In this document: piece by piece, positions 31,276 to 58,987 of the stretch | How the letters are laid out: the number at the start of each line of letters is the position of its first letter | Numbering within the stretch: the stretch's first letter is position 1 | NCBI GenBank assembly: GCA_021785065.1 | Contig: JAJYGQ010000003.1 | Location: forward strand, 2,470 to 66,469 | Direction: 5' to 3' | Length of the DNA stretch: 64,000 bases | Origin: a bacterium | Lineage (GTDB): Bacteria > Patescibacteriota > Minisyncoccia > Phycocordibacterales > JAKAEA01 | Translations under genes and position numbers: made by a program | Notes under the pieces: model-generated | The model's database searches: none | Told to the model about the DNA's origin: nothing | What the model saw: the letters and a program-made list of their open reading frames with translations, nothing else

Positions 31276-33561
31276 CTACGTTGCCATAGTAGCACGATTT
31301 TCACTTGCCGAGTCATTATCTTCAGGGTCTGCTGCTGCAGTTTCTGTGGCGCTGCTTGCTCCGAGGATTTCTCGTGGTTTGGCACCTTCGCCAGGGCCGA
31401 TAACGCCATGCTCTTCGAGGAGGTCAATGAGACGGGCCGCTCGGGCGTAGCCAATTCGCAGTTTTCGCTGGAGGTATGAAGTTGAGGCTTTTCCGGCCTG
31501 AACAACGGCTTCGCGCGCCTCTTCGTACAATGGATCGCTGTTTTCTTCATCATCGTTGCCGAATGTGGTATCGAAAATAGCGTTCTTATCGGCAGCTGTT
31601 TCGGTAAAGTTGATTTCGGACGGCGGCACGTCGCTATAGGTTTCGACAAAATAATTTACCACGTCCTTCAATTCTGTTTCGGAAATGAATGCTGATTGAA
31701 TACGCTGTGGCTTCGCCATTTCGCCAGACATAAAGAGCATATCTCCAGCGCCCAGCAGTTTTTCGGCGCCGCCAGTATCTAGAATAGTTCTTGAATCTAT
31801 TTGTGATGTAACCTGTAAAGCGACACGTGATGGAATGTTCGCTTTAATAAGACCAGTAATAACATTCACTGATGGTCGCTGCGTTGAAATAACAAGATGA
31901 ATACCCACCGCGCGACTCATTTGGGCTAGACGCACGATGGCTGCTTCTAGTTCACGCGGGTATGCCTGCATCAAATCCGCTAACTCATCAACGACAATAA
32001 CAAGATAGGGCATTGTTTCAGGCAGCTGCTGCTCGTCTTGGTCGTCGGCTTTACCGCTCAATTTTTTGAGCGCCGGGCCAAGGATGTTTTTGTGGTAGGA
32101 CTCAATATCGCGGACTTTTTCTGATTCCAAAACGTCATAACGGCGATCCATTTCTTTAGCGGCCCACTTGAGAGCTAAAATGGCTTTTTTGGGATCAGTA
32201 ATTACTGGCGTGAGGAGATGGGGGATATTGTTGTAGAGTGTTAATTCGACGCGTTTAGGGTCAATCATGATGAATTTCAGATTCTCAGGAGAATTTCGGT
32301 AAAGCAGGGAGGTGAGAATGGCATGAATGGTAACTGACTTTCCGGAACCAGTCGCGCCTGCTATCAAAAGGTGGGGCATCTTCGCCAGGTTTGCGAAGTG
32401 ACTTTTGCCGGATATACCCCGGCCAAGGGCCACCAGGAGGGGTTTGTCAGACGTTTGGAATTCCTCGCCCAATAGAAGGGTGCCGAGGCCAACGGTAGTT
32501 TTTGAACTATTAGGAATTTCGATACCTACCAGCGACTTGCCGGGAATAGGAGCTTCGATGCGCAGCGGGTGTGCGGCCAGAGCCAGGGCAAGATCGTTTT
32601 GTAGACCAACTATGCGCGACAGCTTCACGCCCTCAGCTGGTTTCAAGGCATAGCGAGTCACTGATGGTCCAATAGATATTTCATCCATTTCTACGTTAAT
32701 GCCAAAGTTCTGCAAGGTTCGCTTAATAATATTGGCATTCGCTTTAATATCTCCAACGCCTGGCTTGCCTTTATCTTCCTCAAGAAGGGAAAGAGGCGGG
32801 GGAGTAAAAGTCTTCCCGAGAAATTTTCTGGAACTAACAGCAAATTCATTCGTGTCGTTTTTGGCCATGCCAATAATCTTTTGCCCCTCTGACGGAGTTT
32901 TAGTTTTGGAAGTTTCTTTGGTGGAAATTGTTTCCTCTACCTCAGGCTTTTTCTTTTCAAGAAGGGGATCGGGGATTGCCTCGGCGACCAGTGAATCCAT
33001 CTGGTCTCCATCGTCGGTCATTTCTTTTTCCTCAGAGGTTTTTTTCCAAAAAATAAATTGTCGCCAACCGAGTTGGTTATCGGCGGTAATGATGAGGGCA
33101 ATAAAGGCAATGCCAAAAAGAAAAATGAGGGACGCCCACACGTCAAAAAGTTGAACAAGAGGGTGGGCAATAAGCGAACCGATATAGCCACCCGCTCCCA
33201 TCCCCACCCGATCGTTTTTAAAGATAATGCCGATAATGCCTAAAAAGGCGAGAAGGCTTATCGAGAATGAAACAAGACGAAGCCAGCCAATTCGCTGACG
33301 CCGCAGCGAACTTGCAAACACAATGCCAGTAAAAAAAAGGAATACTGGTACAAAAAAGTATCCAATGCCAAGGAGAAAGGTTAGGGCTATATAGGTTCTA
33401 TCGCCGACAACTCCAGCTTTACCTATAGCTGAAAGAATAAAGAAAAATCCAATAATAAAGCTGGCGATAGCGTAGATGATGCGTAATGTTTCTTGTTGAA
33501 GACCAATGGGTTGTTCTTTCGCGGTCTCGCGAGGAGAGCGTGTTTTTTTCTGTTTTTTCAT
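31276..33561 (-). CDS. ftsK: DNA translocase FtsK/SpoIIIE
   Basis: N-terminal 4-5 TM helices, motor domain with Walker A LLIAGATGSGKSV and FtsK gamma-like C-terminus. Confidence 0.9.
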   Translation of the reverse strand: MKKQKKTRSPRETAKEQPIGLQQETLRIIYAIASFIIGFFFILSAIGKAGVVGDRTYIALTFLLGIGYFFVPVFLFFTGIVFASSLRRQRIGWLRLVSFSISLLAFLGIIGIIFKNDRVGMGAGGYIGSLIAHPLVQLFDVWASLIFLFGIAFIALIITADNQLGWRQFIFWKKTSEEKEMTDDGDQMDSLVAEAIPDPLLEKKKPEVEETISTKETSKTKTPSEGQKIIGMAKNDTNEFAVSSRKFLGKTFTPPPLSLLEEDKGKPGVGDIKANANIIKRTLQNFGINVEMDEISIGPSVTRYALKPAEGVKLSRIVGLQNDLALALAAHPLRIEAPIPGKSLVGIEIPNSSKTTVGLGTLLLGEEFQTSDKPLLVALGRGISGKSHFANLAKMPHLLIAGATGSGKSVTIHAILTSLLYRNSPENLKFIMIDPKRVELTLYNNIPHLLTPVITDPKKAILALKWAAKEMDRRYDVLESEKVRDIESYHKNILGPALKKLSGKADDQDEQQLPETMPYLVIVVDELADLMQAYPRELEAAIVRLAQMSRAVGIHLVISTQRPSVNVITGLIKANIPSRVALQVTSQIDSRTILDTGGAEKLLGAGDMLFMSGEMAKPQRIQSAFISETELKDVVNYFVETYSDVPPSEINFTETAADKNAIFDTTFGNDDEENSDPLYEEAREAVVQAGKASTSYLQRKLRIGYARAARLIDLLEEHGVIGPGEGAKPREILGASSATETAAADPEDNDSASENRATMAT

Positions 33562-33617: not shown

Positions 33618-34496
33618 TTGACAAAGAATATAGTAGGTATACTATGTAAAAGTCATAAAAGACACAGTGTCATTGGTTATAAAAGACACAAAAATATGAC
33701 TCACGACAAAAACATAGTTATAAGAGACAGTGTCTTTTATAACTCATCTTTTTTCCACAACGACCAAGATTTAATAGAACTTTATAAAAAAATAGAGAGA
33801 ATTTGCGGTGCCGTTTTTTTAGTAACAAGTTTTACGGGAGATACAAATATAATCAAAAAGACAATACAAGAGGCAGCATTGTTGACTTTTAAATCCTGCT
33901 CAAATCTAGTTTTGGGTACGAACATTAACTCTCAAAGGCTCAAGGAGGTGTACGTTAATCTCACCATTCTTTATGCACACCTAGATAGCGCCTTTTGGTC
34001 GGGAGTTTTATCTCAGATGAATACCTCAATTATTCAAAAAGAAATTCAAAATATTATTGCCCTAGTATCAAAATTAGATTCTAAATATAAAGATCAAAGT
34101 AATCCAAAAAATTCATTTCTTACCTTAGTTGAAAAAACAATTCCGAGCGCTACTGGGGAAAATGCCTTTTCTCAAAATATACCCAAAACAGAAGACCATA
34201 TAAAGGACAACATAAAGGACAATATAAAAGACACAACAAAAGACACAAAGGACACTATAAAAGACAAAAATAAAGGACATACTATAAAAAGTCCTTTAAG
34301 TATTAATCATAAGGATAGAACAGATAAGATTAAGTTTATTCTAAGGGATTTTAAGCAAAGAACTATAAAGGACATATCATCACTTTTTCCTGATGTGAGC
34401 GAAAAAACCATCCAACGAGAAATAAATCGCCTTATCGATGAAGGTATTGTTAAGAGGATCGGCGATAGGCGCTGGAGTAGCTATACTCTCGCTTAA
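33618..34496 (+). CDS. hypothetical DNA-binding protein with C-terminal DeoR-like winged HTH and a Lys/Asp (KDxIKD) repeat tract
   Basis: C-terminus TIKDISSLFPDVSEKTIQREINRLIDEGIVKRIG resembles a wHTH; internal KDNIKDNIKDTTKDTKDTIKDKNKG repeat; true start may be the internal Met at 33696. Confidence 0.4.
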   Translation: MTKNIVGILCKSHKRHSVIGYKRHKNMTHDKNIVIRDSVFYNSSFFHNDQDLIELYKKIERICGAVFLVTSFTGDTNIIKKTIQEAALLTFKSCSNLVLGTNINSQRLKEVYVNLTILYAHLDSAFWSGVLSQMNTSIIQKEIQNIIALVSKLDSKYKDQSNPKNSFLTLVEKTIPSATGENAFSQNIPKTEDHIKDNIKDNIKDTTKDTKDTIKDKNKGHTIKSPLSINHKDRTDKIKFILRDFKQRTIKDISSLFPDVSEKTIQREINRLIDEGIVKRIGDRRWSSYTLA

Positions 34497-35031: not shown

Positions 35032-37023
35032 ATGACTTCACGAAAAATTCTCGTTGGAGCTTTAGGTGTTGCGACAGTTTTGTCGCTCGTTGGCGTTGCT
35101 GCTATCACAGCTTCTGCTGCTACGACTTCCACCTACAACTTCACGCGAAACTTAACTGTTGGTTCAACCGGTGCTGATGTCACCGCGCTCCAGCAGTTTC
35201 TTGCTCAGGAGGGATTCCTCACAGTGACTCCGACCGGTTACTTCGGTCCTATCACTAAGAAGGCTGTTGCCGCTTGGCAAGCTAGCATTGGTTTACCATC
35301 ATATGGTTTCTTCGGTGCTATGTCTCGCGCTGCGATCGCCTCATCGGCTTCCGTAAGCACGACCTCAACACCTGGTTGCCCGGCCGGCGCTCTGTATAAC
35401 ACACAGACTGGCGCTCCGTGCACCGCCCCTGTTACCACTTCGACCCCTGGTTGCCCAGCTGGCGCTGTGTTCAATTACATGACTGGCGCTCGATGTGCTA
35501 CTACCACGACTTCTACAACTGGTTCTGGCTCTAACGTTGTTTGCCCAGTTGGCTGGACGTGTACAGGTCCTACTGGCGGCACAACCACCAGCATTAGCAC
35601 CCCAGGTCAAATTGGTAGCATTGCTATCACTGCTCAGTCTTCACCGAACAACACCACGGTCTACCAAGGCCAATCATATGATGTTGCTCGCTACAAGCTC
35701 CAAGCAATTGGCGCTTCAGACATGGGTGTCCAGGATCTTGTTCTCTACTTCAACAATCGACCTTGGCTCTATGCTAATTCGATCACCATTCACGATGATT
35801 CCGGTAATACTATCGCCCAAGTTAATAACTTGAGCGCCAGCAACTTTACTGAGATCACTGTCGGTAGCGATTACAGCATCGACATTCCTCTCAATAACTT
35901 TGTTGTACCGGCCGCTCAGACCAAGTACCTCACCGTTAATATGAGCTTCTCGCCTGTTTCTAACCAAACAAGCAATCTCGTAATCTCGGAAGCTCAAGTT
36001 CGTGCCGTTGATGGTACTGGCGTAGCTACTACAGTAGCTGACAATACAAATATTACGATTGACTATAGTACCAACAACGCTGGTTCAGTTATTGTGACCA
36101 CAGATAGCTCATCGCCACAAACTGGTAACGTTCAGATTTCTACGAGCAATACCACTACTGGTGTTCCTCTAGCTGTCTACGACATCAAGTCGCAGTCTGT
36201 TTCTTCAACGCTTAACGCGTTGACCATTGGTTTGCAGACGAGCAACAGTGCTCACACTGTCTCGCCATCAACTCTGTTTAACAACGTGAAGATGACAGTC
36301 AATGGTACGACATACAGTGCCAATGACTTCACAGCTAGTACGACTGGTACTAACGGTGTTTACAACGGTACTGCTGTATTCAACAACATATCAGTTCCGT
36401 TGCCTGCTGACACTTATGTACCAATTGTTATCTCGGGTGATGTTGCTGCTGACACCAACTCTACGCTTGATGGCACTCTCGCTTCCACGACCTTCGCCGT
36501 TGCTAGTGAATCTAACCCGTATGTTGTAAACTCAGCGTATAGCAAGCTCACATCCAACAACGCGGTGTTTACCAGCAATCCCCAGTTCTTCACAGCTTCA
36601 AGCGTGACAGCTGGTGGTTTGGCAACAGCGTACGGTACTAAGTCTGCTATCAATAGCAACTCTAGCACCTCTACACAGCAGTACACCTTTACCTTCAACC
36701 TTACTGCTGGTAACAATCCGATCTACATCTCGAAGACTGTCGGCACAGCTTTGACACTTTCGTCAATTCCGTCCGGCTTTACCAATTCGAGCGTTGTGTT
36801 CTCGGATAACAACACCAACGGTGATGGTTCGAGTTACTTCTACCTCTCACCAGGTCAAACAAAGACCTTCACCGCTACGTATCAGGCTACTGCTCTGACT
36901 ACGGACTCAGGTGTAATCCAGGTAAACGCTATCAACTACGGTACAGAGTCCACAGCTCTCAGCAGCGCTTCTCTATCCTCATCGGCTATCTCGAACGCTC
37001 TGCAAGCTGTTCTGTTCCACTAG
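35032..37023 (+). CDS. secreted/surface protein with peptidoglycan-binding (PG_binding_1-like) N-terminal domain, two Cys-containing tandem repeats and a long S/T/N-rich beta-rich region
   Basis: Signal peptide; LTVGSTGADVTALQQFLAQEGFL...GYFGPITKKAV motif; repeated STPGCPAGA(L/V)(Y/F)N..TGA.C. Confidence 0.6.
   Translation: MTSRKILVGALGVATVLSLVGVAAITASAATTSTYNFTRNLTVGSTGADVTALQQFLAQEGFLTVTPTGYFGPITKKAVAAWQASIGLPSYGFFGAMSRAAIASSASVSTTSTPGCPAGALYNTQTGAPCTAPVTTSTPGCPAGAVFNYMTGARCATTTTSTTGSGSNVVCPVGWTCTGPTGGTTTSISTPGQIGSIAITAQSSPNNTTVYQGQSYDVARYKLQAIGASDMGVQDLVLYFNNRPWLYANSITIHDDSGNTIAQVNNLSASNFTEITVGSDYSIDIPLNNFVVPAAQTKYLTVNMSFSPVSNQTSNLVISEAQVRAVDGTGVATTVADNTNITIDYSTNNAGSVIVTTDSSSPQTGNVQISTSNTTTGVPLAVYDIKSQSVSSTLNALTIGLQTSNSAHTVSPSTLFNNVKMTVNGTTYSANDFTASTTGTNGVYNGTAVFNNISVPLPADTYVPIVISGDVAADTNSTLDGTLASTTFAVASESNPYVVNSAYSKLTSNNAVFTSNPQFFTASSVTAGGLATAYGTKSAINSNSSTSTQQYTFTFNLTAGNNPIYISKTVGTALTLSSIPSGFTNSSVVFSDNNTNGDGSSYFYLSPGQTKTFTATYQATALTTDSGVIQVNAINYGTESTALSSASLSSSAISNALQAVLFH
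35368..35505 (+). repeat. about 75-bp tandem direct repeat (2 copies) inside the 35032 CDS
   Basis: cctggttgccc(g/a)gc(c/t)ggcgct...actggcgct repeated. Confidence 0.7.
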
Positions 37024-37163: not shown

Positions 37164-37820
37164 CTATTTTTTTGCAGAGAAAATATAGCCGAGAGGATAG
37201 CGGGCGGCGGCGGCTGGGCGGAGTTTGAGAAATACTTTATCGAGGAGAGCGTAAAAGGGGAAAAGGATAACGCGGCAGAGGCGGGGCATAGAGAGAATAA
37301 TGTTATTGAAATTTACAAAAAAGGGTCCGCCGCCAACGCCCGCAACAGAAATATCACTAAAACCAGCCTCGGAGAGGATGAGCGGCAGAGATTCTTTGGT
37401 GTAGCGGAAGTAGTCGTGCGGGTCGGGGTGATAATTAACGAGAAATGGCACGAAGCCATATAGCTGTCCGCCTGGTTTTAGGATGCGACACATTTCACTG
37501 GTTAGAAAGTCGTGGTGATAGATATGCTCTAAGACATTGGCGCAGATAACTGTGTCAGCAGTGCCATCGGGGAAGGGTAGAGCGTCTTTTTCAAAATTAA
37601 TATTCGAAATTGAGCCGTCGATGGGTTTTATGGAAACCGCGCCCAGAGACTCGTCTTTTTTAAAGTAATTAAAATAGTCTGGCCGCCGGCCGCCGCCAAC
37701 GTCTACCACAGTGCCTCGTAAGGTGTAGTGCGAAAAAGCTTTGTCCATCAAAATGCGGGCGAGCGTTTGGCCGCGCCATATTCGTTTCAAGAAATAAGGA
37801 GCCATCATACGGTGCATCAT
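37164..37820 (-). CDS. class I SAM-dependent methyltransferase (Methyltransf_11-like)
   Basis: VVDVGGGRRPDY (motif I), ADTVICANVLEHI (motif II/III region). Confidence 0.7.
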   Translation of the reverse strand: MMHRMMAPYFLKRIWRGQTLARILMDKAFSHYTLRGTVVDVGGGRRPDYFNYFKKDESLGAVSIKPIDGSISNINFEKDALPFPDGTADTVICANVLEHIYHHDFLTSEMCRILKPGGQLYGFVPFLVNYHPDPHDYFRYTKESLPLILSEAGFSDISVAGVGGGPFFVNFNNIILSMPRLCRVILFPFYALLDKVFLKLRPAAAARYPLGYIFSAKK

Positions 37821-37964: not shown

Positions 37965-40900
37965 ATGAAATTTTTGCAGCAGTGTGTGTTACTTGGTGTT
38001 GTGGCGGTGTGCGCTAGCGTGCTTGGTTGGTCACCGGCGTATGCGGCTGGCACGGTACCGGTTACGGGCGATATGGCTACTGACACCGTATGGACGGCCG
38101 ATGATGGCGTCTATGTGGTTTCCAGTGTCGTCACTATCGACCCGGGGGCGACGCTTTATATTGAACCAGGTACGATAGTAAAATTTTCTCAAGGCGCAAG
38201 TCTCAATGTCCTCGGGGCATTAAATGCCGCGGGCAATCCAGTAAATCCGGTGTACTTTACTTCGTTTGCCGACGACGCTGTTGGCGGTGACACAAATGCT
38301 GACGGTTCGAATTCGTTGCCATCAGCTTCCGATACTTGGGACATTAACTTTCTCCACGCTTCGTATTCAACGATTTCTGGCGCGGTACTCCGCTATAGTA
38401 GCGGCGGAATATTTAATCTGGATTCTCGTTTGTCGCTCGCCAGTACCAGCGTAGCCTTTATGGATAATCCAATTTCAGTTTCGCAGGGAAAACTCAATCT
38501 CAGCAATGTTCTCTTTTCTCATATGTCTCAGGGCGCGCTATGGATATATGCCACCAGTAGTGCGACGCTTGCTTCAACCACGGTTACCAACAGTACAACA
38601 GGGGCGGTGATGGTATACAACAATAGCAATCTTTCGGCGCGTCAGCTTTCTGTGGTAGGCGAGCAAAATGGTCCGGCCCTTTCGGTATACAATCTCTCGA
38701 CCGCTACCTGCGAGCGGTGCGCACTTTCCGATAACGCTACTTCGGTGGTGGTGTATTCGGGAAGTAATCTCGCGCTCAATCATTCGTCCATTGAAAATGC
38801 TACCGGCACCGCCGCTACCGATTTCGAGCTGTATGACCCGGCGTGGAATACGTCGCTACCCAGACATTCGCAGGCTACGTTGTCCGCGACAACGCTGCGC
38901 GGCGGCAAGGACGGCATCATTGTTTTTGGACCGGTAACGTTGCGCCTAGCCACTACAACTATAGAAAATTTTTCCGACGACGGTATTCAAGCTTACGATG
39001 GAGCAACGCTTGTGGGATCTTCGCTACGGGTGAGCAAAAATAAAAATGCTGGTTTAGAAATGTGGTCGACGGTTAACGGGTCGGTGCGCTACAGTGATAT
39101 TTCTGATAATGGTCAATTTGGCATATTGAGTCGGACGGCCACGCCTTTTGCCGCTGTGCAAAATTGGTGGGGAAGTGCTAGCGGGCCCCATCACGCCACG
39201 CTCAATACTAACGGTTCCGGTGACACTGTTTCGGATAACGTCACCTTTTCTCCGTGGCTTCAGGATAAAACGCCTCCGGACCCCGTGGACCCGCCGCCCT
39301 GTTGCTCAAGCGTTCTCTTTATTCCTGGTATTGAAGCGAGCCGATTGTATGCAACCTCAAGCACGCTACTTGGTCGCCTAACCAAAAGAGCGGGTACGAA
39401 AGAAATTCAACTTTGGGAACCAGGATTTACGACGCCCATTAATAAACTTATGCTCGATGAATCCGGTGCCAGTCTCAATTCGGTGTATACCAAAGATATT
39501 ATTACGACCACCAACGAACTGTTGCCAATGTCTAACATAGACATATATAAAACTTTTTCTGGCGTGCTCACCACTCTTGCTACTGAAGGGGCGATTGCGT
39601 CGTGGCAAGCTTACCCTTATGATTGGCGACTTGATCCGCAGTCGCTTGTCGAAAATGGCACACAACTCGCCGCAACGCTGTCTCGGTTAGAGCCGATGGT
39701 TGAGTCGCTGGCCGCGAGTTCAAAAACCGGGAAGGTGACTATTGTTGCCCATAGTAACGGTGGCATACTCGCAAAACTTTTATTGAGTAAGTTGCAAGCC
39801 GAGGGAAAAAGTCAGCTCGTGGATACATTAGTGTTCGTTGCGGTGCCGCAATTAGGGACACCGATAGCTATACCCGCTCTTCTTTCAGGGTATGGTCAGC
39901 AAATTGGCATGGGTTTTATTTTAAACGCCACCACCGCTCAGCATCTTGCTCAAAATATGCCTGCCGCATACAGCTTTATTCCTTCAGCGGCATATTTTCA
40001 TACCACGACATCACCTGTCATTTTTGATCCTTCGCTCAAGACGATTTCTGATTTGTATCAAAATTACGGTCCCGTTATTTCTGATGCTACGTCTCTCGCA
40101 AAATTTTTAACAGCAACAACAAACACAAAACGTTCCTCACCAATAGTGACCCCGGCAAATAGTACACTGCTGGCCGCGGCGACTAGGTTGCACGTCTCGC
40201 TTGATAGTTGGCAGGCACCATCTGGTGTCAATGTTATTACGGTGGCCGGTGTGGGTATTGATACACTTTCTGCTACACGTTATTACGCGCGCCCACCGTC
40301 GTTTTGGGGTAACTTATGGGGAGCTTCGGCTACTATAGACATGTCTCCCCAAATGACATCACTCGGCGACAATACCGTGGTAACACCAAGCGCCGCGGCT
40401 ACCATCCCCAAGTCGTTTACGTACTACATTGATTTAGCCGCGTACAACAATAAGAGCGGAAAAAATCGCGGGCATGCTGATATTTTAGAAGCCGAACCAA
40501 CCGACGAGCTTCTCATAGATATCATACGGGGTTCGGTGGGCACAGCGGCGTCACTCTCGCCAGTATTACCTCATTTTGTTTCCACAACTATTCCCGCCAA
40601 CTACCTTACCAATGCTAGTAATACAAAAACAGAAGAACAAATAAGCGTCCATTCACCGGTGGTGTTAAATGTATACGATGATCAAGGGCGACACACTGGT
40701 CCTGTTAAAAATATTACTGCGATAGATTCAGCGCTTATTCCCACCGAAAGCAAAATTCCCAATAGCTACTATCTACCCTTCGGGGAAGGGCAATACGTAG
40801 GGGTGCCTTTAGGAACGAAAGGAAAAATTGTCCTTTCGGGAACAGCGGCAGGATCAGCCACGCTTGATATTACAGCGTATGGTACGACCACGCAGTTTTC

Positions 40901-41207
40901 CGATATTCCCGTGATGAAAACATCTATTGCTACGGTAGATCTTGGCAGCACTACGCCATCACTTGATCTTGACTACGACGGCGACGGTACTATTGATGTC
41001 GTCTTTCCTCCAACGCCCGCCGGCGCTACAGCATATCCAGCCGCAGTTCAAAAACTTATCAGTGCGTTTTCTCGAAACCGAGCACATCATAAAAATATGC
41101 TAGGAAAATTAGAAAGCATCATTGAGACCATTAAAGAAAAATTTGACGATCATGTTGTTTCGTCTGACCATCCTGACCGCGCTGTTCCCACTACCTTGGA
41201 CCATTGA
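37965..41207 (+). CDS. large secreted protein: right-handed beta-helix (pectate-lyase-like) N-terminal region fused to an alpha/beta-hydrolase (lipase/esterase, GHSxG) domain
   Basis: Signal peptide; repeated NxxxS/Gxxx beta-helix-like repeats over about 450 aa; nucleophile elbow VTIVAHSNGGILAKLLL. Confidence 0.6.
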   Translation: MKFLQQCVLLGVVAVCASVLGWSPAYAAGTVPVTGDMATDTVWTADDGVYVVSSVVTIDPGATLYIEPGTIVKFSQGASLNVLGALNAAGNPVNPVYFTSFADDAVGGDTNADGSNSLPSASDTWDINFLHASYSTISGAVLRYSSGGIFNLDSRLSLASTSVAFMDNPISVSQGKLNLSNVLFSHMSQGALWIYATSSATLASTTVTNSTTGAVMVYNNSNLSARQLSVVGEQNGPALSVYNLSTATCERCALSDNATSVVVYSGSNLALNHSSIENATGTAATDFELYDPAWNTSLPRHSQATLSATTLRGGKDGIIVFGPVTLRLATTTIENFSDDGIQAYDGATLVGSSLRVSKNKNAGLEMWSTVNGSVRYSDISDNGQFGILSRTATPFAAVQNWWGSASGPHHATLNTNGSGDTVSDNVTFSPWLQDKTPPDPVDPPPCCSSVLFIPGIEASRLYATSSTLLGRLTKRAGTKEIQLWEPGFTTPINKLMLDESGASLNSVYTKDIITTTNELLPMSNIDIYKTFSGVLTTLATEGAIASWQAYPYDWRLDPQSLVENGTQLAATLSRLEPMVESLAASSKTGKVTIVAHSNGGILAKLLLSKLQAEGKSQLVDTLVFVAVPQLGTPIAIPALLSGYGQQIGMGFILNATTAQHLAQNMPAAYSFIPSAAYFHTTTSPVIFDPSLKTISDLYQNYGPVISDATSLAKFLTATTNTKRSSPIVTPANSTLLAAATRLHVSLDSWQAPSGVNVITVAGVGIDTLSATRYYARPPSFWGNLWGASATIDMSPQMTSLGDNTVVTPSAAATIPKSFTYYIDLAAYNNKSGKNRGHADILEAEPTDELLIDIIRGSVGTAASLSPVLPHFVSTTIPANYLTNASNTKTEEQISVHSPVVLNVYDDQGRHTGPVKNITAIDSALIPTESKIPNSYYLPFGEGQYVGVPLGTKGKIVLSGTAAGSATLDITAYGTTTQFSDIPVMKTSIATVDLGSTTPSLDLDYDGDGTIDVVFPPTPAGATAYPAAVQKLISAFSRNRAHHKNMLGKLESIIETIKEKFDDHVVSSDHPDRAVPTTLDH

Positions 41208-41339
41208 CATATCTTAAAAACGAGATAGTATAGGGCGACGTGTGCCAAAGACAAGAGGCATCCCATAAGCCCTCTCGAGGTTCTATTCTCACCACTTTGC
41301 CACGGGTCGATTAAGAATTTTACTCGTAGATTCGTATCT

Positions 41340-43047: not shown

Positions 43048-43857
43048 AGCTCCTACCTGAATATGTTGATCAAAAAATTCCACTGCCGCTCGTAAAGGCC
43101 CTTAACAACGGCTTTTATGTCCGCGGCAACGCGGATTTTTTGTTTTCCGAACGATTGTTGCTTGAAAAATACATTCCGTCGCGGCACGACTTTCTAGCAT
43201 CGGCAACGATGTTAGAGGGGTCTTTATAGTGTCGTAGACGGGCAGGTAAAACAATACTGTTATTGAGAATCTTTGATTCCAGATAACAGAGTATATTAAT
43301 TGTGGTTCTTACATTTCCTGACGGGAATGTAAGGGCATATGGTGGATGCCTTGGCTTCAAAAGGCGATGAAGGACGTAGCATAACTGCGATAAGCTTCGG
43401 GGAGGTGTCGAGCAACCGTCAATCCGAAGATTTCCGAATGAGGAAACTCCCGCGTTTTAACGCGGACGTTTGCGCTTGACGCAAACGAGTATACCCAGGG
43501 AAGTAAAACATTTCAGTACCTGGAGGAATAGAGACCAATCGCGCAAGCGAATGGAATTTCCTAAGTAGCGGCGAGCGAAAAGGAATGAGCCCAAACCCGA
43601 TTCCACCTTTGCTGTTTGACGAGAGTCGAATAGCGGAGGTGCGATCGGGGGTTGTAAGGCGGTAACGTCACTTTTATAGTGAGAAGAGTTACAAAATGAG
43701 ATAGTAGCGGAACGTGCTGGAAAGCGCGGCCCCAGAGGGTAATGGCCCCGTACGCGAAACTAACTCATCTCTTTTGTTACCGTTCTTGAGTACCTCGAGA
43801 CACGAATGGCTCGGGGGAATCCAGCGGAACTAACCGCTAAGGCTAAATACTTTTGAA

Positions 43858-43897
<40 letters not shown>

Positions 43898-43967
43898 CAG
43901 CCCGGTGAGGGCGGTGAAATAGACCTGAAACCATATGCCTACAAGGAGTCAGAGCGGGGTACCACTT

Positions 43968-44385
43968 TGCGTGGTATGACGTTCTCAAAATAAAATTAAG
44001 AAAATTTATCTTTCATTCATCAAAATTTTATTGCTGAATATATACACTTTTATTGTGTACTATGTTTATGTAATACAAAGTTTGATGGATACAACCTTCT
44101 ACATAGGTTATACGAATTCAATTGATCGAAGATTGAAAGAACATAACTATAGTAAGGGTCGCTTTACCAGGAAACATATTCCCTGGAAACTTGTTTACTA
44201 TGAAGCATTTAACGACAAATTTCTAGCGAAACGTCGAGAAAAGATGCTCAAAGAAACCAGTAGGGCTTGGCAAGAATTACGAAAACGTCTCGGTGTTAAT
44301 TATCGAGAAAAAAAATCGCAAACAAATCCAGCCCAAGATATATTATTTTCTAAGTAAGTTTATAATTGAGGATGTCATAGTGCCT
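43968..44385 (+). mobile_element. about 415-nt AT-rich insertion in 23S helix-25 region (IVS-like or intron) carrying a GIY-YIG ORF
   Basis: Flanked by a perfect 13-bp helix GGGGTACCACTTT / AAAGTGGTACCCC; E. coli-equivalent position about 540-550, the classic IVS site. Confidence 0.6.
44031..44357 (+). CDS. GIY-YIG family nuclease (small stand-alone type) encoded inside the 23S insertion
   Basis: YVYVIQS...FYIGYTNSIDRRLKEHN plus downstream Arg/Glu catalytic residues. Confidence 0.75.
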   Translation: MLNIYTFIVYYVYVIQSLMDTTFYIGYTNSIDRRLKEHNYSKGRFTRKHIPWKLVYYEAFNDKFLAKRREKMLKETSRAWQELRKRLGVNYREKKSQTNPAQDILFSK

Positions 44386-46099
44386 AAAGTGGTACCCCGT
44401 CATGGCGTGCCTATTGAAGAATGAGCCAACGAGTTCTAGCATCCTGCGGGCTAAAGGCGCGAGCCTGGAGCCGCAGGGAAACCGAGTGTGAATAGCGCGT
44501 TTGTAGGATGCTAGAGACCCGAAGCCAGAGCGATCTACCCATGTGCAGGGTGAATGGTGCCGAAAGGCACCAGGAGGCCCGAACCGATAAGCCGTTCAAC
44601 ACTTTCGGATGACATGTGGGTCGAAGTGAAAAGCTAATCGAGCCTGGTAATAGCTGGTTCTCTCCGAAATAGCTTTTGGGTTAGCGTCGAATGTTCCCAG
44701 GGGGGGTAGAGCACTGGAAGGTCTCGACAGGGCGAAAGCTCGCGAGACCTATCAAACTCCGAATACTCTTGGTTAAAAGTTCGGCAGTTAGACTGTGGGG
44801 GCTAAGCTCCATTGGTCAAAAGGGAAACAGCCCAGATCTCCAGTTAAGGTCCCTAAATTTATGCTAAGTGCACTTAAGGTGGTAGAAATTCTCTAACAAT
44901 GAGGAGGTTGGCTTAGAAGCAGCCATCCTTTAAAGAAAGCGTAACAGCTCACTCATCGAGAGTTTCCGCGCCGAAGATAATCGGGGCTAAGCATAGTACC
45001 GAAACTGAGGACATTATTTTTCTTCGGAAAAATAGCGTGGTAGGAGAGTTTTCGTGTTGCGATGAAGGCGAAGGGGTGACCCACGCTGGAGCGTCACGAA
45101 GTAAGAATGTTGGCACAAGTAACCGCAATCAGTGTGAAAACCACTGACGCCGAAAGATCAAGGTTTCCTTGGCAATGACAATCAGCCAAGGGTTAGTCGG
45201 TCCTAAGGGGATGGCGAACGCCGCACCCGATGGATACATGGTTAATATTCCATGACTTTTGTGTTAGGCGATGAGAGGACGGAGTGCAGTATCCCGAGCA
45301 CCTTATTGGATTGGTGTTCGTGTCGTGAGAGTGGCGTGTAGGAAAATCCGCACGCGGCCGTAAGGCACATTCAAGCGAAGCGAAGCTGTTGAGGGCGACC
45401 TCGACCAATTCGGGAAAGCGCGCTTCCAAGAAAAGTCTCTAAGCTTACTAACACAGAAACCGTACCGCAAACCGACACAGGTGATCAGCTCGAGTAGAGC
45501 AAGGCGAACGAATGAGAAGTCCCCAAGGAACTCGGCAAAAAAGCGGCCGTAACTTCGGAATAAGGCCTGCCTATCGCAAGATAGGCCGCAGCTAAAGTAT
45601 GCTTGGCAACTGTTTACCAAAAACACAGCTCCCTGCGAACTCGAAAGAGGATGTATAGGGGGTGACACTTGACCAATGCCAGAAGGTCAACTATCGGCGG
45701 TGCGATTATATCAAGCTGACTGGTACAAGCCCTGGTGAATGTCGGTCGTAACTATAACGATCCTAAGGTAGCGAAATTCCTTGTCAGGTAAGTTCTGACG
45801 CGCACGAATAGTGTCATGACTGAGCAACTGTCTCGGGGACCCGTTCGGTGAAAATACAATACCGGTGAAGATGCCGGTTACCTGCAGCTAGACGAAAAGA
45901 CCCCGGAAGCTTTACTGCAACTTGGTATTGAGCGTACGTTGTTGATGCGTAGCATAGGTGGGAGAGGTTGAGGGCATGATCTCGGTTGTGCCGGACTCGT
46001 CAGTGAAATACCACTCTTCATAGGTGTACGTTCTAACCCGCGCGGCAAAAACGCGCGGAAACAGTACTAGGCGGGCAGTTTTAGTGGGGCGCTATCCTC

Positions 46100-47059
46100 A
46101 ACTTTGGGCGCCTCAGATTTGGTAAATGGTTCAAACGACCCTCCACCAAGTCAAATTATAAAATCAGGGGGACTTTAGTCCGTAAGGGCTATCGAAAAGT
46201 TAGCTATATGCTGGAACATCCGAGTATCTTTATGTACTCGCTCAAGTTTTTTGAGCAGTGAAAATCGTAAAGTGCGGACAATCAGCAGGAAATGCTCCTA
46301 TTCTAATATTTTTATTCAGCATAGAAGCAAATCCTCAGAGACTACACGCTAACCTCCGCGAAAGCGGATGATGATATAGTCCGATCTTTGTGGCGACACA
46401 AAGCTTACTACATATAGTAAGACCATTAATGAACACTAAGGAAATTCGGGAGTACAAAAACACTCTCAAACTTACTGACATTCAAAAATCTATTCTCGTC
46501 GGAACATTGTTGGGCGATGGACATTTAGAGACGCAAGATAACGGTAAAACGTATCGTCTCAAAATTGAACATCAGTTAGCCCAGCAAGACTACACGGAAT
46601 GGCTTCACAGCCACTTCAAAGAGTGGGTTAGAAATGGAATGTATAGAAAAGTAAAATCACAAGGTAAAGAATATGTCGGATTTACCACATATTCGCACGG
46701 CGCCTTCAGATTTTACGCTCAGCAATTTTACACTGAGAAAAAGAAACATATTCCCAGAATGATCAGTAAATTGCTAAATCCATTAGTTGTTGCGATCTGG
46801 TTTATGGATGATGGTTCGTGGAAATCAGAAAAACACGAAACCTTCATAATACATACGCTCGGATTCACAAAAGAAGATCTTACGTTGATACAAGATTCGT
46901 TTAGAAAATTGTTCAATATAGAAACTTCACTTCATCGACAAAAAGAAAGATATTGGAGGTTGTATATACGATCAAGTTCCGCAAAAGAATTTGAAAAACT
47001 AATACAACCTTACACATCACTCGTTGATTCTATGAAGAAAAAGATGGGTAACAATAAGC
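46100..47059 (+). mobile_element. group I intron in 23S rRNA (domain V, before CTAAAGAGTAACGGAGG) encoding a LAGLIDADG endonuclease
   Basis: Exon sequence resumes exactly at CTAAAGAGTAACGGAGGAG; intron contains AGAGACTACACG (P7/J8-7-like); ORF stop codon lies in the downstream exon. Confidence 0.7.
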
Positions 47060-47070
47060 CTAAAGAGTAA
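46390..47070 (+). CDS. double-motif LAGLIDADG homing endonuclease
   Basis: ILVGTLLGDGHL and VVAIWFMDDGS motifs about 100 aa apart. Confidence 0.85.
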   Translation: MATQSLLHIVRPLMNTKEIREYKNTLKLTDIQKSILVGTLLGDGHLETQDNGKTYRLKIEHQLAQQDYTEWLHSHFKEWVRNGMYRKVKSQGKEYVGFTTYSHGAFRFYAQQFYTEKKKHIPRMISKLLNPLVVAIWFMDDGSWKSEKHETFIIHTLGFTKEDLTLIQDSFRKLFNIETSLHRQKERYWRLYIRSSSAKEFEKLIQPYTSLVDSMKKKMGNNKPKE

Positions 47071-47392
47071 CGGAGGAGTCTATTAAGGTCGGCTAGGCGC
47101 GAATGGAAACCGTGCCGATAGGGCATTGCCACAAGCCGGCTTGACTGCAAGAGGTAAGTCTCGAGCAGGTGCGAAAGCAGAGCAAAGTGAACCGACCATC
47201 CGCATTAGATGCGGTGGAAGATTATCTGACAAAAGCTACTCCGGGGATAACAGGCTGGTACTGCCTAAGCGTCCATAGCGACGGCAGTGTTCGGCACCTC
47301 GATGTCGGCTCAAGATATCCTCCTGGTGGAGAAGCTAGGAAGGGTTTGGCTGTTCGCCAATTAAAATCTTACGCGAGCTGGGTTCAGACCGT

Positions 47393-47714
47393 TCAGCGCT
47401 CAAATCGGAATTTTGGAATTTTCTGAAATTTTTGACATTGAGCATTGAACCGTCTGAATCCCGAGGTTTAGTTTCAGTTCCACAACTATCTGTAACTTGT
47501 TCACGGCGGTCCCGTCGAGTAATCGGCGGTGACACAGTCAACTTATATCGGTGAAGCCCATATCGTGGGAACACGAGTGCTGGTGACACCTAGGGAATTT
47601 TGTAAATTTTTACAAATGCCCGTAGAGACTACACGTTGACTATCTTTCTCGGAGTTTATAGACCGAGTGAGATAAAAATATAGTCCATTGCACGGAGTGA
47701 TCCGTGGAAACAAG
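47393..47714 (+). mobile_element. ORF-less group I intron in 23S at the L2593-equivalent site (between GACCGT and CGTGAGACAG)
   Basis: Exon context GCGAGCTGGGTTCAGACCGT | ... | CGTGAGACAGGTTGGTC matches the I-CreI/L2593 homing site; contains AGAGACTACACG core-like element. Confidence 0.65.
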
Positions 47715-47856
47715 CGTGAGACAGGTTGGTCTCCTATCTGCTGCAGGCGTTGATTCTTGAAGAGATTTGACTCTAGTACGAGAGGACCGAGTTGAACTGA
47801 CCTCTGGTGTGGCAGCTCTGGCGCCAGCTGGACCGCTGCGTAGCTATGTCGGGAAC

Positions 47857-47889
<33 letters not shown>

Positions 47890-48072
47890 GACTCTAAGAT
47901 TAGGAATCGTTAAGACCCGTGGGAGATGACCACGTTGATAGGCACCAGGTGTACGCACAGTAATGTGTTGAGCCGAGGTGTACTAATTGGTCGATCTTGT
48001 CAGGAAATGTACGAAGCACAAAATATACTCTGTTACCTGGAATTACAAAGAAATTAAAACATTGAATGTTGT

Positions 48073-48186
48073 GTTCTGGTGGTTCGTCGCGGAGGTCACA
48101 CCTGATCTCATTCCGAACTCAGAAGTTAAGCTCCGTTGAGGCGATGGTACCGTCTATGGATGGGAGAGTAGCTCGCCGCCGGAACA
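48073..48186 (+). rRNA. rrf: 5S ribosomal RNA
   Basis: CCTGATCTCATTCCGAACTCAGAAGTTAAGC and GGGAGAGTAGCTCGCCGCC blocks. Confidence 0.9.
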
Positions 48187-54679: not shown

Positions 54680-54957
54680 GTCTCCTACTCTCTATAGGGG
54701 AGTTGGTTCTTTGAAACTTGAAATACTTGAGATGGGTGGAGCCGGTAAAAACGGCTGCATCCAGCAAGTACCCAAATTATTCTTACAAAAATAATTCCAA
54801 ATAAAATAAGTCAGTTTTATTCGAGCAATCAAACTCTACGAATCTAAATTATTGTTAGGCATAAGAACATATTAAAGCGATAGTTTTCACTAGCGTCTTT
54901 TATTTTGTTCCGTTTGACTCGTCAAGAATCTTATTCGATTCTTCGCGAGGATAATTT

Positions 54958-56555
<1,598 letters not shown>

Positions 56556-56783
56556 TTCAAGGTGAATTTCGTCAATCATCACTTGATGATTAGACTGACG
56601 GAGTCGATATTGTGGATCTCGTACGAGTCCATAATGGAACGCGAATTCCTAAAGCGCTGACCGCAGGGAAAGACCGCAAATAAACGGAACAAAATAAAGG
56701 ACGTCGCTTCTTTATTCGGAAAAATCGCCTTAATAGGGCGGTTTTTCTTTTATTAGGTCATATTTTTAGGGTACAGAAAAGTA

Positions 56784-57458: not shown

Positions 57459-57532
57459 GGGCGTATAGCTCAGGTGGTTAGAGCGCGTCACTGATAATGA
57501 CGAGGTCCCACGTTCGAGTCGTGGTACGCCCA
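57459..57532 (+). tRNA. tRNA-Ile (anticodon GAT)
   Basis: GGGCGTATAGCTCAGGTGGTTAGAGCGCGTCACTGATAATGACGAGGTCCCACGTTCGAGTCGTGGTACGCCCA; cloverleaf with anticodon loop cTGATAa. Confidence 0.9.
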
Positions 57533-58987
57533 CATTCCTCGGAAATCGATGTTTTTAGGCGCAGTGGCGAGTACTTGATAGACGCTTTTAAATTGAGCTG
57601 AAGCCACCGTTTGGTTTTTGATAGAAGCGTTCGAGAGTACTTTTCCGAGCATATTTCGCTTTTCTTCCTCGGTGTAGTTCAAATACGTTTCCGCGGCCTT
57701 GTTGCCCTCTAAAAGAACTTCTTTAATCTGTTCGAGAGTAAAAGGCGACACACCACCCCTAGCTTGGATTTCGGCGATTTGCTTCTTGATAATAACCCGC
57801 TTGTTTTCAATCTCCTGAAGCTTGATTTTGTAGACTTCTTCCCGGATTAATTGAGAACTGTAGCCATCGGCCAGAGTTAATTCTTTCTTGAGCAGATCGT
57901 CCAACTCCGCAGTCAGAGTTCCCGTTGAATTTTCAACATACGTGATTTTGCCTTTATTTTCTTCCTTATACATATCATAGGAGAATTCGATCAATTCTTC
58001 TCTGAATTTTAATTTGAGAAAAAGGTTGGATAGAAGAGCGTGAACATCATCGGATTTCAGATACTTTTTGTGTTCTTCGCAGTTACCCCTGCCATTGGTG
58101 CAGTAGTAATATTGGTGGCCCCGTTGGGTGTCCACGGTTAACGCGCAGCCGCAGGAGGCGCATTTCAGGAATCCCTGAGCGGCGTAGAAGTACTTTTTCG
58201 GGCGAGGGTGATTCCGGCCGGCGAGAACGTCTTGCACGGTGTCAAACAGTTTTTGAGATATGATCGGTGTATGTTTGCCGGGGTAAATTTTGCCGTCACG
58301 AGGCATGAGGCCGGTGTAGAAGCGGTTGAGGAGCAAGCGCTGTAACTGACCTTTTTCGATTTTGTTGCCGGTTTTGGTTCGTAAACCTTCTTTGTAGAGA
58401 ATGTCGCTGGTTTGCTTCAGCGTGTGAGTGCCTGTGGCGTAGAGCTCAAATGCGCGGGTGATAAACGGAGCATACTTTTTGTCCACGACGACGGTTTTGG
58501 TAGTCTTGTCGTTAAGATATCCCAGAGGCGCTTGATTGGGCCATTCACCACGTTCCAGTTTTGCTCGGTTGCCTCGTTTGACGTTGACGCTAAGGTCACG
58601 AATGTATTGATTGGCCATGGCCTGCTCAATGCTCATGACGATGACGTTGTCGTTAGGGTAGTAGCTTTTATCAAACGTCCGAATGCACTTAATCTGATTG
58701 TTTTGGAGGAGCCATTGAATCTGACCGCCATCCACTGGATTTCTCGTTAAACGGTCAATTTTCCAGCAGAGAATGGCATCGGCTTTGCCGGCGGTGATCA
58801 TTTTGATCATGTCATTGAAGATGGGCCGGCCGGGCTCTTTAGCCGATTTGCTTTCCTTGAGAATGGCAATTACGTCTAAGCCATTAGCTTTGACGATTTT
58901 CTGGAGCTCGTCTTCTTGCGATGCCAGCGACAAAACCTGTTTATCTTCAGTATCAGTGGATTTTCTACAATAGAGAATAAATTTCAT
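57488..58987 (-). CDS. large serine recombinase (integrase), C-terminus encoded on the complement of tRNA-Ile
   Basis: Catalytic YCRKSTDTEDKQ...SLASQ...DRLTRN resolvase domain, recombinase domain, zinc ribbon CASCGC...YYYC; last 15 codons and TGA stop overlap the tRNA anticodon and T arms. Confidence 0.85.
   Translation of the reverse strand: MKFILYCRKSTDTEDKQVLSLASQEDELQKIVKANGLDVIAILKESKSAKEPGRPIFNDMIKMITAGKADAILCWKIDRLTRNPVDGGQIQWLLQNNQIKCIRTFDKSYYPNDNVIVMSIEQAMANQYIRDLSVNVKRGNRAKLERGEWPNQAPLGYLNDKTTKTVVVDKKYAPFITRAFELYATGTHTLKQTSDILYKEGLRTKTGNKIEKGQLQRLLLNRFYTGLMPRDGKIYPGKHTPIISQKLFDTVQDVLAGRNHPRPKKYFYAAQGFLKCASCGCALTVDTQRGHQYYYCTNGRGNCEEHKKYLKSDDVHALLSNLFLKLKFREELIEFSYDMYKEENKGKITYVENSTGTLTAELDDLLKKELTLADGYSSQLIREEVYKIKLQEIENKRVIIKKQIAEIQARGGVSPFTLEQIKEVLLEGNKAAETYLNYTEEEKRNMLGKVLSNASIKNQTVASAQFKSVYQVLATAPKNIDFRGMWAYHDSNVGPRHYQ

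Follow-up and report, generated by a model that had tools for sequence, protein, structure and literature searches.

Within a 64,000-nucleotide stretch of contig JAJYGQ010000003.1 (GenBank assembly GCA_021785065.1, positions 2,470 to 66,469 of the forward strand; hereafter the window), which derives from a bacterium of the Patescibacteriota (Minisyncoccia; Phycocordibacterales; JAKAEA01), we analyzed an open reading frame (ORF) that encodes a protein of 1080 amino acids (aa), begins with ATG and lies at 37965..41207 on the plus strand, exactly the position and length reported in an earlier note made from the letters alone. Re-translation confirmed the key codons and motifs, an identical protein (P0001) is present in public collections, no paralogue was found within the window, and chance could not plausibly account for an ORF of this length whose homologues form over 1500 clusters. 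The evidence supports well the prediction that this protein is an exported serine hydrolase of the family of lecithin:cholesterol acyltransferase (LCAT) and lysosomal phospholipase A2 (LPLA2), with an intact catalytic triad. The features of the gene, several of them defined with the help of an AlphaFold2 (AF2) model and its per-residue confidence score (pLDDT), are as follows.

37965..38045, plus strand: predicted Sec-type signal peptide, aa 1-27, with cleavage predicted after AYA (inspection, hydropathy, model)
38046..39269, plus strand: right-handed parallel beta-helix, aa 28-435, with an N-cap unit and the C-cap N-x-WWGS-x-x-GP ... PWL (Pfam, AF2)
38061..38399, plus strand: N-terminal unit of about 113 aa, aa 33-145, with a DxNxDG-type loop (alignment to tandem copies)
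39270..39299, plus strand: proline-rich interdomain linker TPPDPVDPPP, aa 436-445 (pLDDT below 50 at aa 439-445)
39300..40544, plus strand: LCAT/LPLA2-type alpha/beta-hydrolase domain of 415 aa, aa 446-860, starting with CC446/447 (Pfam, Foldseek, profile, hhalign)
39615..39629, plus strand: PYDWR motif, aa 551-555, common to LCAT and LPLA2 (Y552, W554 and R555 invariant in 52 of 52 relatives)
39753..39755, plus strand: codon of the predicted nucleophile Ser597, in the elbow IVAHSNGG, aa 593-600 (39741-39764; invariant in 52 of 52)
40368..40370, plus strand: codon of the predicted catalytic Asp802, in GDNTV (invariant in 52 of 52)
40473..40475, plus strand: codon of the predicted catalytic His837, in RGHADIL (invariant in 52 of 52)
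40626..41009, plus strand: family-specific beta-sandwich of 128 aa, aa 888-1015, with the motif HSP..L..YD..G.HTG and a DxDGDG loop
41031..41207, plus strand: amphipathic helical tail, aa 1023-1080, and stop codon (AF2 model)

The predicted LCAT/LPLA2-type hydrolase domain

Using Pfam, we observe that the LCAT model (PF02450, the family of LCAT, LPLA2 and PDAT) scores 58.3 bits, well above its cut-off of 21 (E = 1.1e-15), over aa 520-722 and profile positions 56-255, and the same domain is already annotated in at least 50 relatives. Sub-threshold matches at the nucleophile elbow were obtained with DUF7379, PGAP1 (18.5 bits against a cut-off of 24.3), Tle3 (16.4 bits against 27), DUF900, DUF676 and Lipase_3; PGAP1, Tle3, DUF900, DUF676 and Lipase_3 are lipid esterase families. 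Thus, among the hidden Markov models (HMMs) that had been proposed as a check of a lipase assignment, LCAT exceeded its threshold, PGAP1 fell below it and Lipase_2 gave no match, while the Beta_helix model, proposed for the N-terminal part, also passed its cut-off. No carbohydrate-esterase Pfam family scored against the protein, and an NCBIfam scan returned no meaningful match.

A full-length AF2 prediction made from a 52-homologue alignment (mean pLDDT 85.4, predicted TM-score 0.66) contains the alpha/beta-hydrolase fold that the earlier note had expected, modelled with high confidence, with the hydrolase region mostly at pLDDT 85-98. The best Foldseek matches of this region in the Protein Data Bank (PDB) were structures of LPLA2 (4x97, 4x92, 4x90 and 4x95; E = 1e-9 to 8e-9, target-normalised TM-score 0.63-0.66), followed by LCAT (5txf, 4x96, 4xx1, 5bv7 and 6mvd), with the LPLA2/LCAT set as a whole lying between E = 1e-9 and 1e-7. 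These alignments run over about 445 columns and take in the whole 375-378-residue LPLA2/LCAT chains, at TM-scores of 0.61-0.66 and 14-18% identity. LCAT is defined as a hydrolase core, a membrane-binding domain and a cap with a lid, with Ser181 as the catalytic serine (PMC6277198), and in the predicted structure of our protein a strand-rich insertion (aa 459-512) and a helix-rich insertion (aa 635-747) are placed where the membrane-binding and cap subdomains of LCAT/LPLA2 would be expected. Comparisons based on sequence profiles gave the same families, in that the family profile matched PDB structures of LPLA2 (E = 1.3e-10), LCAT (E about 4e-9) and the phospholipase Tle4 (E = 8.3e-9), and an hhalign comparison of the family with human LCAT returned a probability of 97.5% (E = 5e-12, 269 columns); the numbering of the human sequence used there reproduces Ser181, Asp345 and His377.

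The same alignments locate the predicted active site. By the family profile and by hhalign, Ser597 aligns with Ser165 of LPLA2 and Ser181 of LCAT, Asp802 with Asp327 of LPLA2 (GDGDGTV) and Asp345 of LCAT, and His837 with His359 of LPLA2 (EHIEML) and His377 of LCAT, while the PYDWR motif aligns with PYDWR of both enzymes. In the profile alignment to LPLA2, the family consensus AHS falls on Ser165, GDgTV on the Asp327 segment and eHadil on the His359 segment; the second aligned stretch of this comparison scores 5.4 bits, which is weak alone, and it is co-linear with the first and agrees with the fold match. The elbow IVAHSNGG, previously picked out as a nucleophile elbow, is present at aa 593-600 with Ser597 as its serine, and the proposed Ser-His-Asp triad is borne out at the level of sequence, its three putative members being invariant in all 52 relatives. 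Other residues invariant in the 52 are H596, G599 and G600 of AHSNGG, G801 and V805 of GDNTV, and P454 and G455 of the PG loop (FIPGIEASRL).

We conclude that the hydrolase is a member of the LCAT/LPLA2 family, i.e., of a phospholipase A or acyltransferase family, and not a generic lipase. It has in common with LPLA2 (PLA2G15; 4x90/4x97) and LCAT (5txf/4x96) the triad positions, PYDWR, the xHSxG elbow and the Pfam LCAT domain, and like LCAT it is predicted to be extracellular. It differs from both in being bacterial, not eukaryotic, and in carrying a beta-helix, a beta-sandwich and a helical tail, and the cysteines that form the disulfides of LCAT are missing, with a conserved vicinal Cys-Cys pair at the start of the domain instead. 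This pair (aa 446-447, 39300..39305) is retained at C446 in 40 and at C447 in 31 of the 52 relatives, and is a possible vicinal disulfide, or metal or redox site.

A further likeness is to Tle4 (TplE) of Pseudomonas aeruginosa (4r1d; Foldseek E = 1.4e-8, TM-score 0.40), likewise a bacterial alpha/beta-hydrolase, and a capped phospholipase that is used against bacteria. Tle4 is delivered by a type VI secretion system (T6SS) and lacks the beta-helix and C-terminal sandwich, whereas the present protein has a predicted Sec-type signal, and Tle4 systems include a Tli4-type immunity gene that is absent at this locus. Membership of the T6SS Tle effectors was considered and rejected, with Tle3 below its cut-off and neither T6SS nor immunity genes nearby, and we treat the likeness to Tle4 as one at the level of fold and superfamily.

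Predicted export signal, beta-helix, sandwich and tail

Sec export is predicted on the basis of the n-h-c pattern of the N-terminus (MKFLQQCVLLGVVAVCASVLGWSPAYA, followed by AG after the predicted cleavage site), which on inspection shows a single basic residue (K2), a hydrophobic core and A-x-A at positions -3/-1; of the disorder of aa 1-27 in the AF2 model (pLDDT below 50), where the fold begins at aa 30; and of the hydrophobic N-termini found in most complete relatives. A hydropathy scan with 19-residue windows identified only two strongly hydrophobic segments, the signal peptide and an internal core strand of the hydrolase (aa 618-640). The signal peptide that had been claimed for this protein is therefore one that we also predict. 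A lipoprotein was considered and rejected, since inspection of the two cysteines in the signal peptide showed both to lack a lipobox context.

The region that follows is a right-handed parallel beta-helix by both Pfam (Beta_helix, PF13229, 53.8 bits against a cut-off of 25.9, E = 2.2e-14; NosD, E = 2e-5, barely above its cut-off) and the AF2 model, in which the helix extends from aa 30 to about 391 with a cap reaching aa 435, in total about 405 aa. Regular three-strand coils are modelled from aa 170 to 391, and pLDDT is mostly above 88 apart from a disordered loop at aa 147-166. The beta-helix repeats described in the earlier note are thus present, although over about 405 rather than about 450 aa. 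The nearest PDB structures by Foldseek are AlgG (target-normalised TM-score 0.57), AlgE4, the GH87 alpha-1,3-glucanase, Pel9A and phage tailspikes, so that the pectate-lyase-like character also claimed for this region holds for the fold; it does not extend to catalysis, as the Pfam scan gave no match to the Pectate_lyase HMMs, including Pectate_lyase_3, and a comparison of 28 helix-bearing relatives revealed no conserved acidic or basic candidates for a lyase-, epimerase- or hydrolase-type site. The positions kept in at least 85% of these 28 relatives are glycines and one asparagine, together with the N-cap unit (W43, Y50 and the DDxxGGD loop 103-109, i.e., D103, D104, G107, G108 and D109) and the C-cap (N400-x-W402-G403...G407-P408 and P430-W431-L432). 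Since conserved catalytic residues are missing from the beta-helix, polymer attack by this domain, one of the two activities that had been put forward, is unsupported.

Homologues of the beta-helix module occur in other phyla fused to other enzymes. For example, P0041, a Chloroflexi matrixin fusion, and P0025 each contain four to five tandem copies that align to aa 33-145 with 42-48% identity; the entire beta-helix aligns to the M23-peptidase fusion P0029; and fusions to NlpC/P60 and other enzymes are also found. The unit of about 113 aa, which contains a DxNxDG-type loop (DDAVGGDTNADGS, 38271-38309), is thus found elsewhere, repeated four to five times in tandem, in secreted enzymes that are otherwise unrelated and come from other phyla, matrixin and M23 fusions among them. 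Pfam gives no match for the N-terminal 124-aa unit, and the 113-aa unit may correspond to PF28492, which is annotated in relatives. Compared with CASH/NosD-type beta-helix modules of secreted enzymes and tailspikes, the present helix has the N-cap unit and NWWGS..GP C-cap common to the M23, matrixin and NlpC/P60 fusions, and it differs in preceding a lipid esterase and in lacking a conserved catalytic site. The absence of conserved catalytic residues, together with these fusions, suggests a targeting or spacer function, and the beta-helix looks like a portable extracellular module carried by various envelope-active enzymes.

The company that such helices keep raises the alternative of a carbohydrate or polymer esterase, in which the beta-helix would bind capsule, teichoic acid or an acylated exopolysaccharide and the hydrolase would remove acyl or acetyl groups. 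The structural matches to AlgG, AlgE4, GH87, Pel9A and tailspikes are consistent with this, as is the conserved upstream neighbor of the gene, which encodes a PG_binding_1 protein. We nevertheless consider it very unlikely: the best matches of the catalytic domain, in sequence and in fold, are all lipid enzymes, the match to the whole LPLA2 chain (about 445 columns over 377 residues) takes in the membrane-binding and cap regions, the Pfam carbohydrate-esterase families are silent, and only about one third of family members have the beta-helix, while the hydrolase and sandwich core is constant.

The C-terminal region, previously described as beta-rich, consists of a beta-sandwich (aa 888-1015) and, after it, a helical stretch of about 58 aa that the earlier description did not mention. 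The sandwich carries a near-invariant H896-S897-P898...D905..G908 motif and a DxDGDG loop at aa 1003-1008, and when aa 866-1022 were modelled alone they again folded as a beta-sandwich (pLDDT 87.4). Pfam gave no match for the C-terminal 220 aa, and a Foldseek search of the PDB with the sandwich modelled alone gave none that was significant (best E = 0.08). A likeness to the TerD-family calcium-binding beta-sandwich (2qz7, 2kxt) exists at the level of fold only, with 4-8% identity and no Pfam or Foldseek match, and the HSP...D..G.HTG motif is specific to the present family, unlike TerD. The tail helices (aa 1023-1035, 1039-1060 and 1070-1079) are modelled at pLDDT 72-79, dropping to about 43 at the end, and amphipathic helical tails are common to many family members.

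Hydropathy and inspection revealed no C-terminal transmembrane helix, LPXTG motif or lipobox in the protein. Likewise, no sortase-type C-terminal anchor was found in 81 relatives, where one incidental LP.T[GAN] match occurs without a transmembrane segment and the hydropathy of the tail is mostly below the transmembrane range, with maxima of up to 1.78 in three. The surface location that had been suggested is therefore not upheld by any membrane or sortase anchor in the protein or its family.

Family distribution and genomic neighborhood

Our exhaustive search with the hydrolase and sandwich as query (aa 446-1020) found 2941 representatives at E ≤ 1e-3, 2287 at E ≤ 1e-10 and 1520 at E ≤ 1e-30, so that the family comprises no fewer than 1520 clusters at 50% identity. 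The top 150 matches nearly all cover the whole query, and their N-terminal extensions range from near zero (some of these being apparently truncated) to about 765 aa, which identifies the hydrolase plus sandwich as the constant unit; the N-terminal module varies, and roughly one member in three has the beta-helix. When one genome per GTDB species was scanned, at least 192 genomes contained a relative. Lineage labels and genomic contexts were examined for the best 80 of these, and almost all carry the label of a Patescibacteria, Parcubacteria or Paceibacteria lineage (Taylor-, Nomura-, Moran-, Kaiser- and Zambryskibacteria, Minisyncoccia and, as a generic label, "Saccharibacteria"), with two exceptions that are probably mis-binned; the family is nearly restricted to Patescibacteria. 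Automated pipelines label its members "right-handed parallel beta-helix repeat-containing protein" or "hypothetical". Among the papers listed by literature searches on LCAT/PF02450 in Patescibacteria, the candidate phyla radiation (CPR) or Parcubacteria, and on "LCAT-like" proteins in bacteria, we found no description of the family, although one may still exist; the top-ranked papers on LCAT/PF02450 in Patescibacteria and CPR made no mention of either name. The catalytic domain itself is known; what is new is the combination of a restriction to Patescibacteria, a sandwich that is always present, N-terminal modules that vary and, as described below, a frequent partner with four transmembrane segments.

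ORF clustering over the 80 loci and the window identified a recurrent block of genes, in the order FtsK (opposite strand), a 263-aa winged-helix-turn-helix protein, a secreted PG_binding_1 protein of about 620 aa, the LCAT-like gene, rplJ and rplL, followed by a 209-aa protein and an MS-channel-helix membrane protein. The core of this block is present in about 16 loci and its single genes in 16-27, and the two closest relatives (L081 and L082, at 65% and 53% identity) have it as well. The window itself contains the PG_binding_1 gene, a methyltransferase gene and rplJ/rplL as neighbors, and no T6SS genes; the surrounding features are these.

31276..33561, minus strand: upstream gene accompanying the PG_binding_1 gene
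33618..34496, plus strand: upstream gene accompanying the PG_binding_1 gene
35032..37023, plus strand: gene for a 663-aa secreted PG_binding_1 protein with two copies of the repeat TSTPGCPAGA and a long beta region rich in Ser and Thr
37164..37820, minus strand: class I S-adenosylmethionine methyltransferase gene, between the PG_binding_1 gene and the LCAT-like gene
41204..41231, plus strand: promoter-like TTGACA-16-TAGTAT, overlapping the stop codon of the LCAT-like gene just upstream of rplJ

The PG_binding_1 gene lies upstream of the LCAT-like gene in 22 loci including the window, and in about 16 of the 22 it comes after FtsK and a protein of 263-292 aa whose C-terminus resembles a winged helix. 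The methyltransferase gene is probably a local insertion, since it is missing from this position in L081 and L082. A scan for promoters and terminators around the LCAT-like gene gave nothing above shuffled expectation, and sites of the TTGACA-16-TAGTAT type are no commoner here than in shuffled sequence.

The conserved housekeeping neighborhood beside rplJ-rplL, seen in about 20 divergent genomes, is one of the points in favor of a role at the producer's own membrane, where the enzyme would convert outer-leaflet diacyl lipids into lysolipids, or re-acylate them, in a manner resembling the Lands cycle. Such a role would account for the lysolipids of CPR bacteria, which are enriched in CPR-size fractions (PMC7242380), and deacylation and transacylation are both carried out by LCAT-family enzymes, as established for LCAT and LPLA2 (PMC6027918). 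Against it, the flexible linker and the 405-aa length of the beta-helix point to reach towards an external target, nothing was found that would hold the enzyme at the membrane of its producer, and synteny with ribosomal genes may be mere conservation of gene order, and so we regard it as improbable.

In 32 of the 80 loci, a protein of about 137 aa with four transmembrane segments and paired loop cysteines is encoded directly downstream of the LCAT-like gene (for example L001, 8856..9269), the distance between the two genes being -10 to +40 bp at nearly every one of these loci. Its only domain match, to DUF4418, is sub-threshold. The tight spacing, in wider contexts that are varied, suggests that it is a functional partner, which might anchor the enzyme, confer immunity or take part in lipid handling. 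The gene was not detected in any of the six frames of the window (best E = 0.36), nor in L081 or L082.

The enzyme may instead be a Tle-like phospholipase toxin, antibacterial or host-lysing, that serves mainly to breach the target membrane and cause leakage of cytoplasmic contents and not to harvest lipid, in which case this partner would be a self-protection (immunity) factor. Several observations are compatible with such a toxin, i.e., the place of Tle4 among the best structure and profile matches, the sub-threshold Tle3 effector domain, the tight coupling of the downstream gene in 32 of 80 loci, the occurrence of the same beta-helix module on M23 and NlpC/P60 cell-wall hydrolases, and the proposal that Patescibacteria use phospholipases to weaken the envelopes of their hosts (PMC11665869). 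The putative immunity gene, however, is missing beside the window gene and in its closest relatives, and no gene for a secretion or injection apparatus is adjacent. The known Tli immunity proteins are periplasmic lipoproteins and not proteins with four transmembrane segments, which counts against the comparison. We therefore regard a dedicated toxin as possible but doubtful, and a toxin role would in any case be compatible with lipid harvesting.

Elsewhere in the window, the 23S rRNA gene (43319..48004) measures 4686 nt against a 2925-nt model and contains a group I intron (46133..46403) followed by a LAGLIDADG ORF (46390..47070), as well as a GIY-YIG ORF (44031..44357). The 5S gene (48075..48184) follows directly, and the 16S gene (54956..56562) is found about 6.8 kb further downstream, with protein genes between it and the 5S, so that the rRNA genes are unlinked and in an unusual order. 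A 23S of about 4.7 kb interrupted by an intron and homing-endonuclease ORFs, and a 16S unlinked from 23S-5S, are typical CPR traits, and these rRNA features and the taxonomy of the homologues both place the window in the Patescibacteria. A 1174-aa class I aminoacyl-tRNA synthetase (16641..20165, plus strand; tRNA-synt_1, Anticodon_1, DUF5915) has an unusual insertion, at aa 524-681, of a His_Phos_1 histidine-phosphatase domain (E = 1e-27). A tRNA gene (57459..57532, plus strand) is overlapped by a gene for a large serine recombinase (57488..58987, minus strand; Resolvase, Recombinase and Zn_ribbon_recom), and an integrated element may have its boundary here.

Proposed role in Patescibacteria

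The reading that we prefer, with a probability of roughly 0.7, is that the protein is an extracellular LCAT/LPLA2-type serine hydrolase, a phospholipase A or acyltransferase, that deacylates foreign membranes. This preference draws on the lineage, since CPR bacteria largely lack lipid synthesis (PMC7242380, PMC11665869); on the lysolipid-rich CPR-size fractions, whose lysolipids may stem from neighbors through phospholipase A (PMC7242380); and on Vampirococcus, where a secreted phospholipase has been proposed to disrupt the host membrane and supply lipids (PMC8080830). The mechanisms of lipid uptake and breakdown in CPR bacteria are said to be unidentified (PMC11665869). Our data show the domain architecture, the family membership, the conservation of the triad and the distribution over lineages; what we infer here covers the substrate, the choice between hydrolysis and transacylation, the target cell and the physiological role, for which lipid scavenging or host-lipid harvesting is plausible and agrees with published hypotheses (PMC8080830, PMC7242380).

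Under this preferred reading, Sec export and cleavage of the signal peptide would yield a mature protein of about 1050 aa. The rigid, non-catalytic beta-helix with its calcium-type loops would act as a targeting module or spacer that probably binds the envelope glycans of a neighboring cell, and the flexible proline linker would join the catalytic domain to it. With His837 and Asp802 activating it, Ser597 would attack an acyl ester of a glycerophospholipid to form an acyl-enzyme intermediate, to be resolved either by water, giving a free fatty acid and a lysolipid (phospholipase A), or by a lipid hydroxyl in an LCAT-like transacylation. Enzymes of this family act on glycerophospholipids through such an acyl-serine intermediate, and phospholipase and acyltransferase activities are both described for LPLA2 (PMC6027918). 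The obligatory sandwich, with its resemblance to calcium-binding folds, would probably position the enzyme on the membrane or envelope. The likely outcome for the Patescibacteria cell would be that acyl chains are freed or transferred out of foreign membranes, which would suffer damage. We favor the view that lipid harvesting and membrane damage are two sides of one activity.

Several points weigh against deacylation of foreign membranes. A single-sequence search of the PDB was not significant (E = 0.075), such that the family profile was needed; identity to LPLA2/LCAT is only 14-18%; and the hydrolase domain, whose sole cysteines are CC446/447, has neither of the two LCAT disulfides. With no anchor to the surface of its producer, the enzyme may diffuse away, and the partner with four transmembrane segments is absent from the window. 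An acylated glycan has to be kept in mind as a substrate, since beta-helices are typical of polysaccharide-active proteins, and an esterase could do nothing to the membrane of the partner organism if that were an archaeon, whose lipids are ether-linked.

Taken further, deacylation of foreign membranes leads to a speculative proposal to which we give only a slim chance, namely that this family is the missing lipid-acquisition enzyme of Patescibacteria, an extracellular LCAT-type transacylase borne on a beta-helix that docks on a neighbor and feeds the symbiont, with the four-transmembrane-segment protein, co-transcribed with it, as membrane receiver or protector in many lineages. Acyl chains stripped from the phospholipids of the neighbor would then reach the symbiont as fatty acids, as lysolipids or by direct transacylation. 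If true, this would explain both the absent fatty-acid synthesis and the lysolipid-rich membranes of CPR bacteria, in a group that makes up a large share of bacterial diversity. Should the protein instead prove to be a secreted lipase of the ordinary kind, a family known chiefly from eukaryotes, that of LCAT, would still be extended into a bacterial radiation and to a new architecture. A large family, nearly restricted to Patescibacteria, with a predicted signal peptide and an intact LCAT/LPLA2-type site by sequence offers a concrete, expressible candidate for the missing lipid step.

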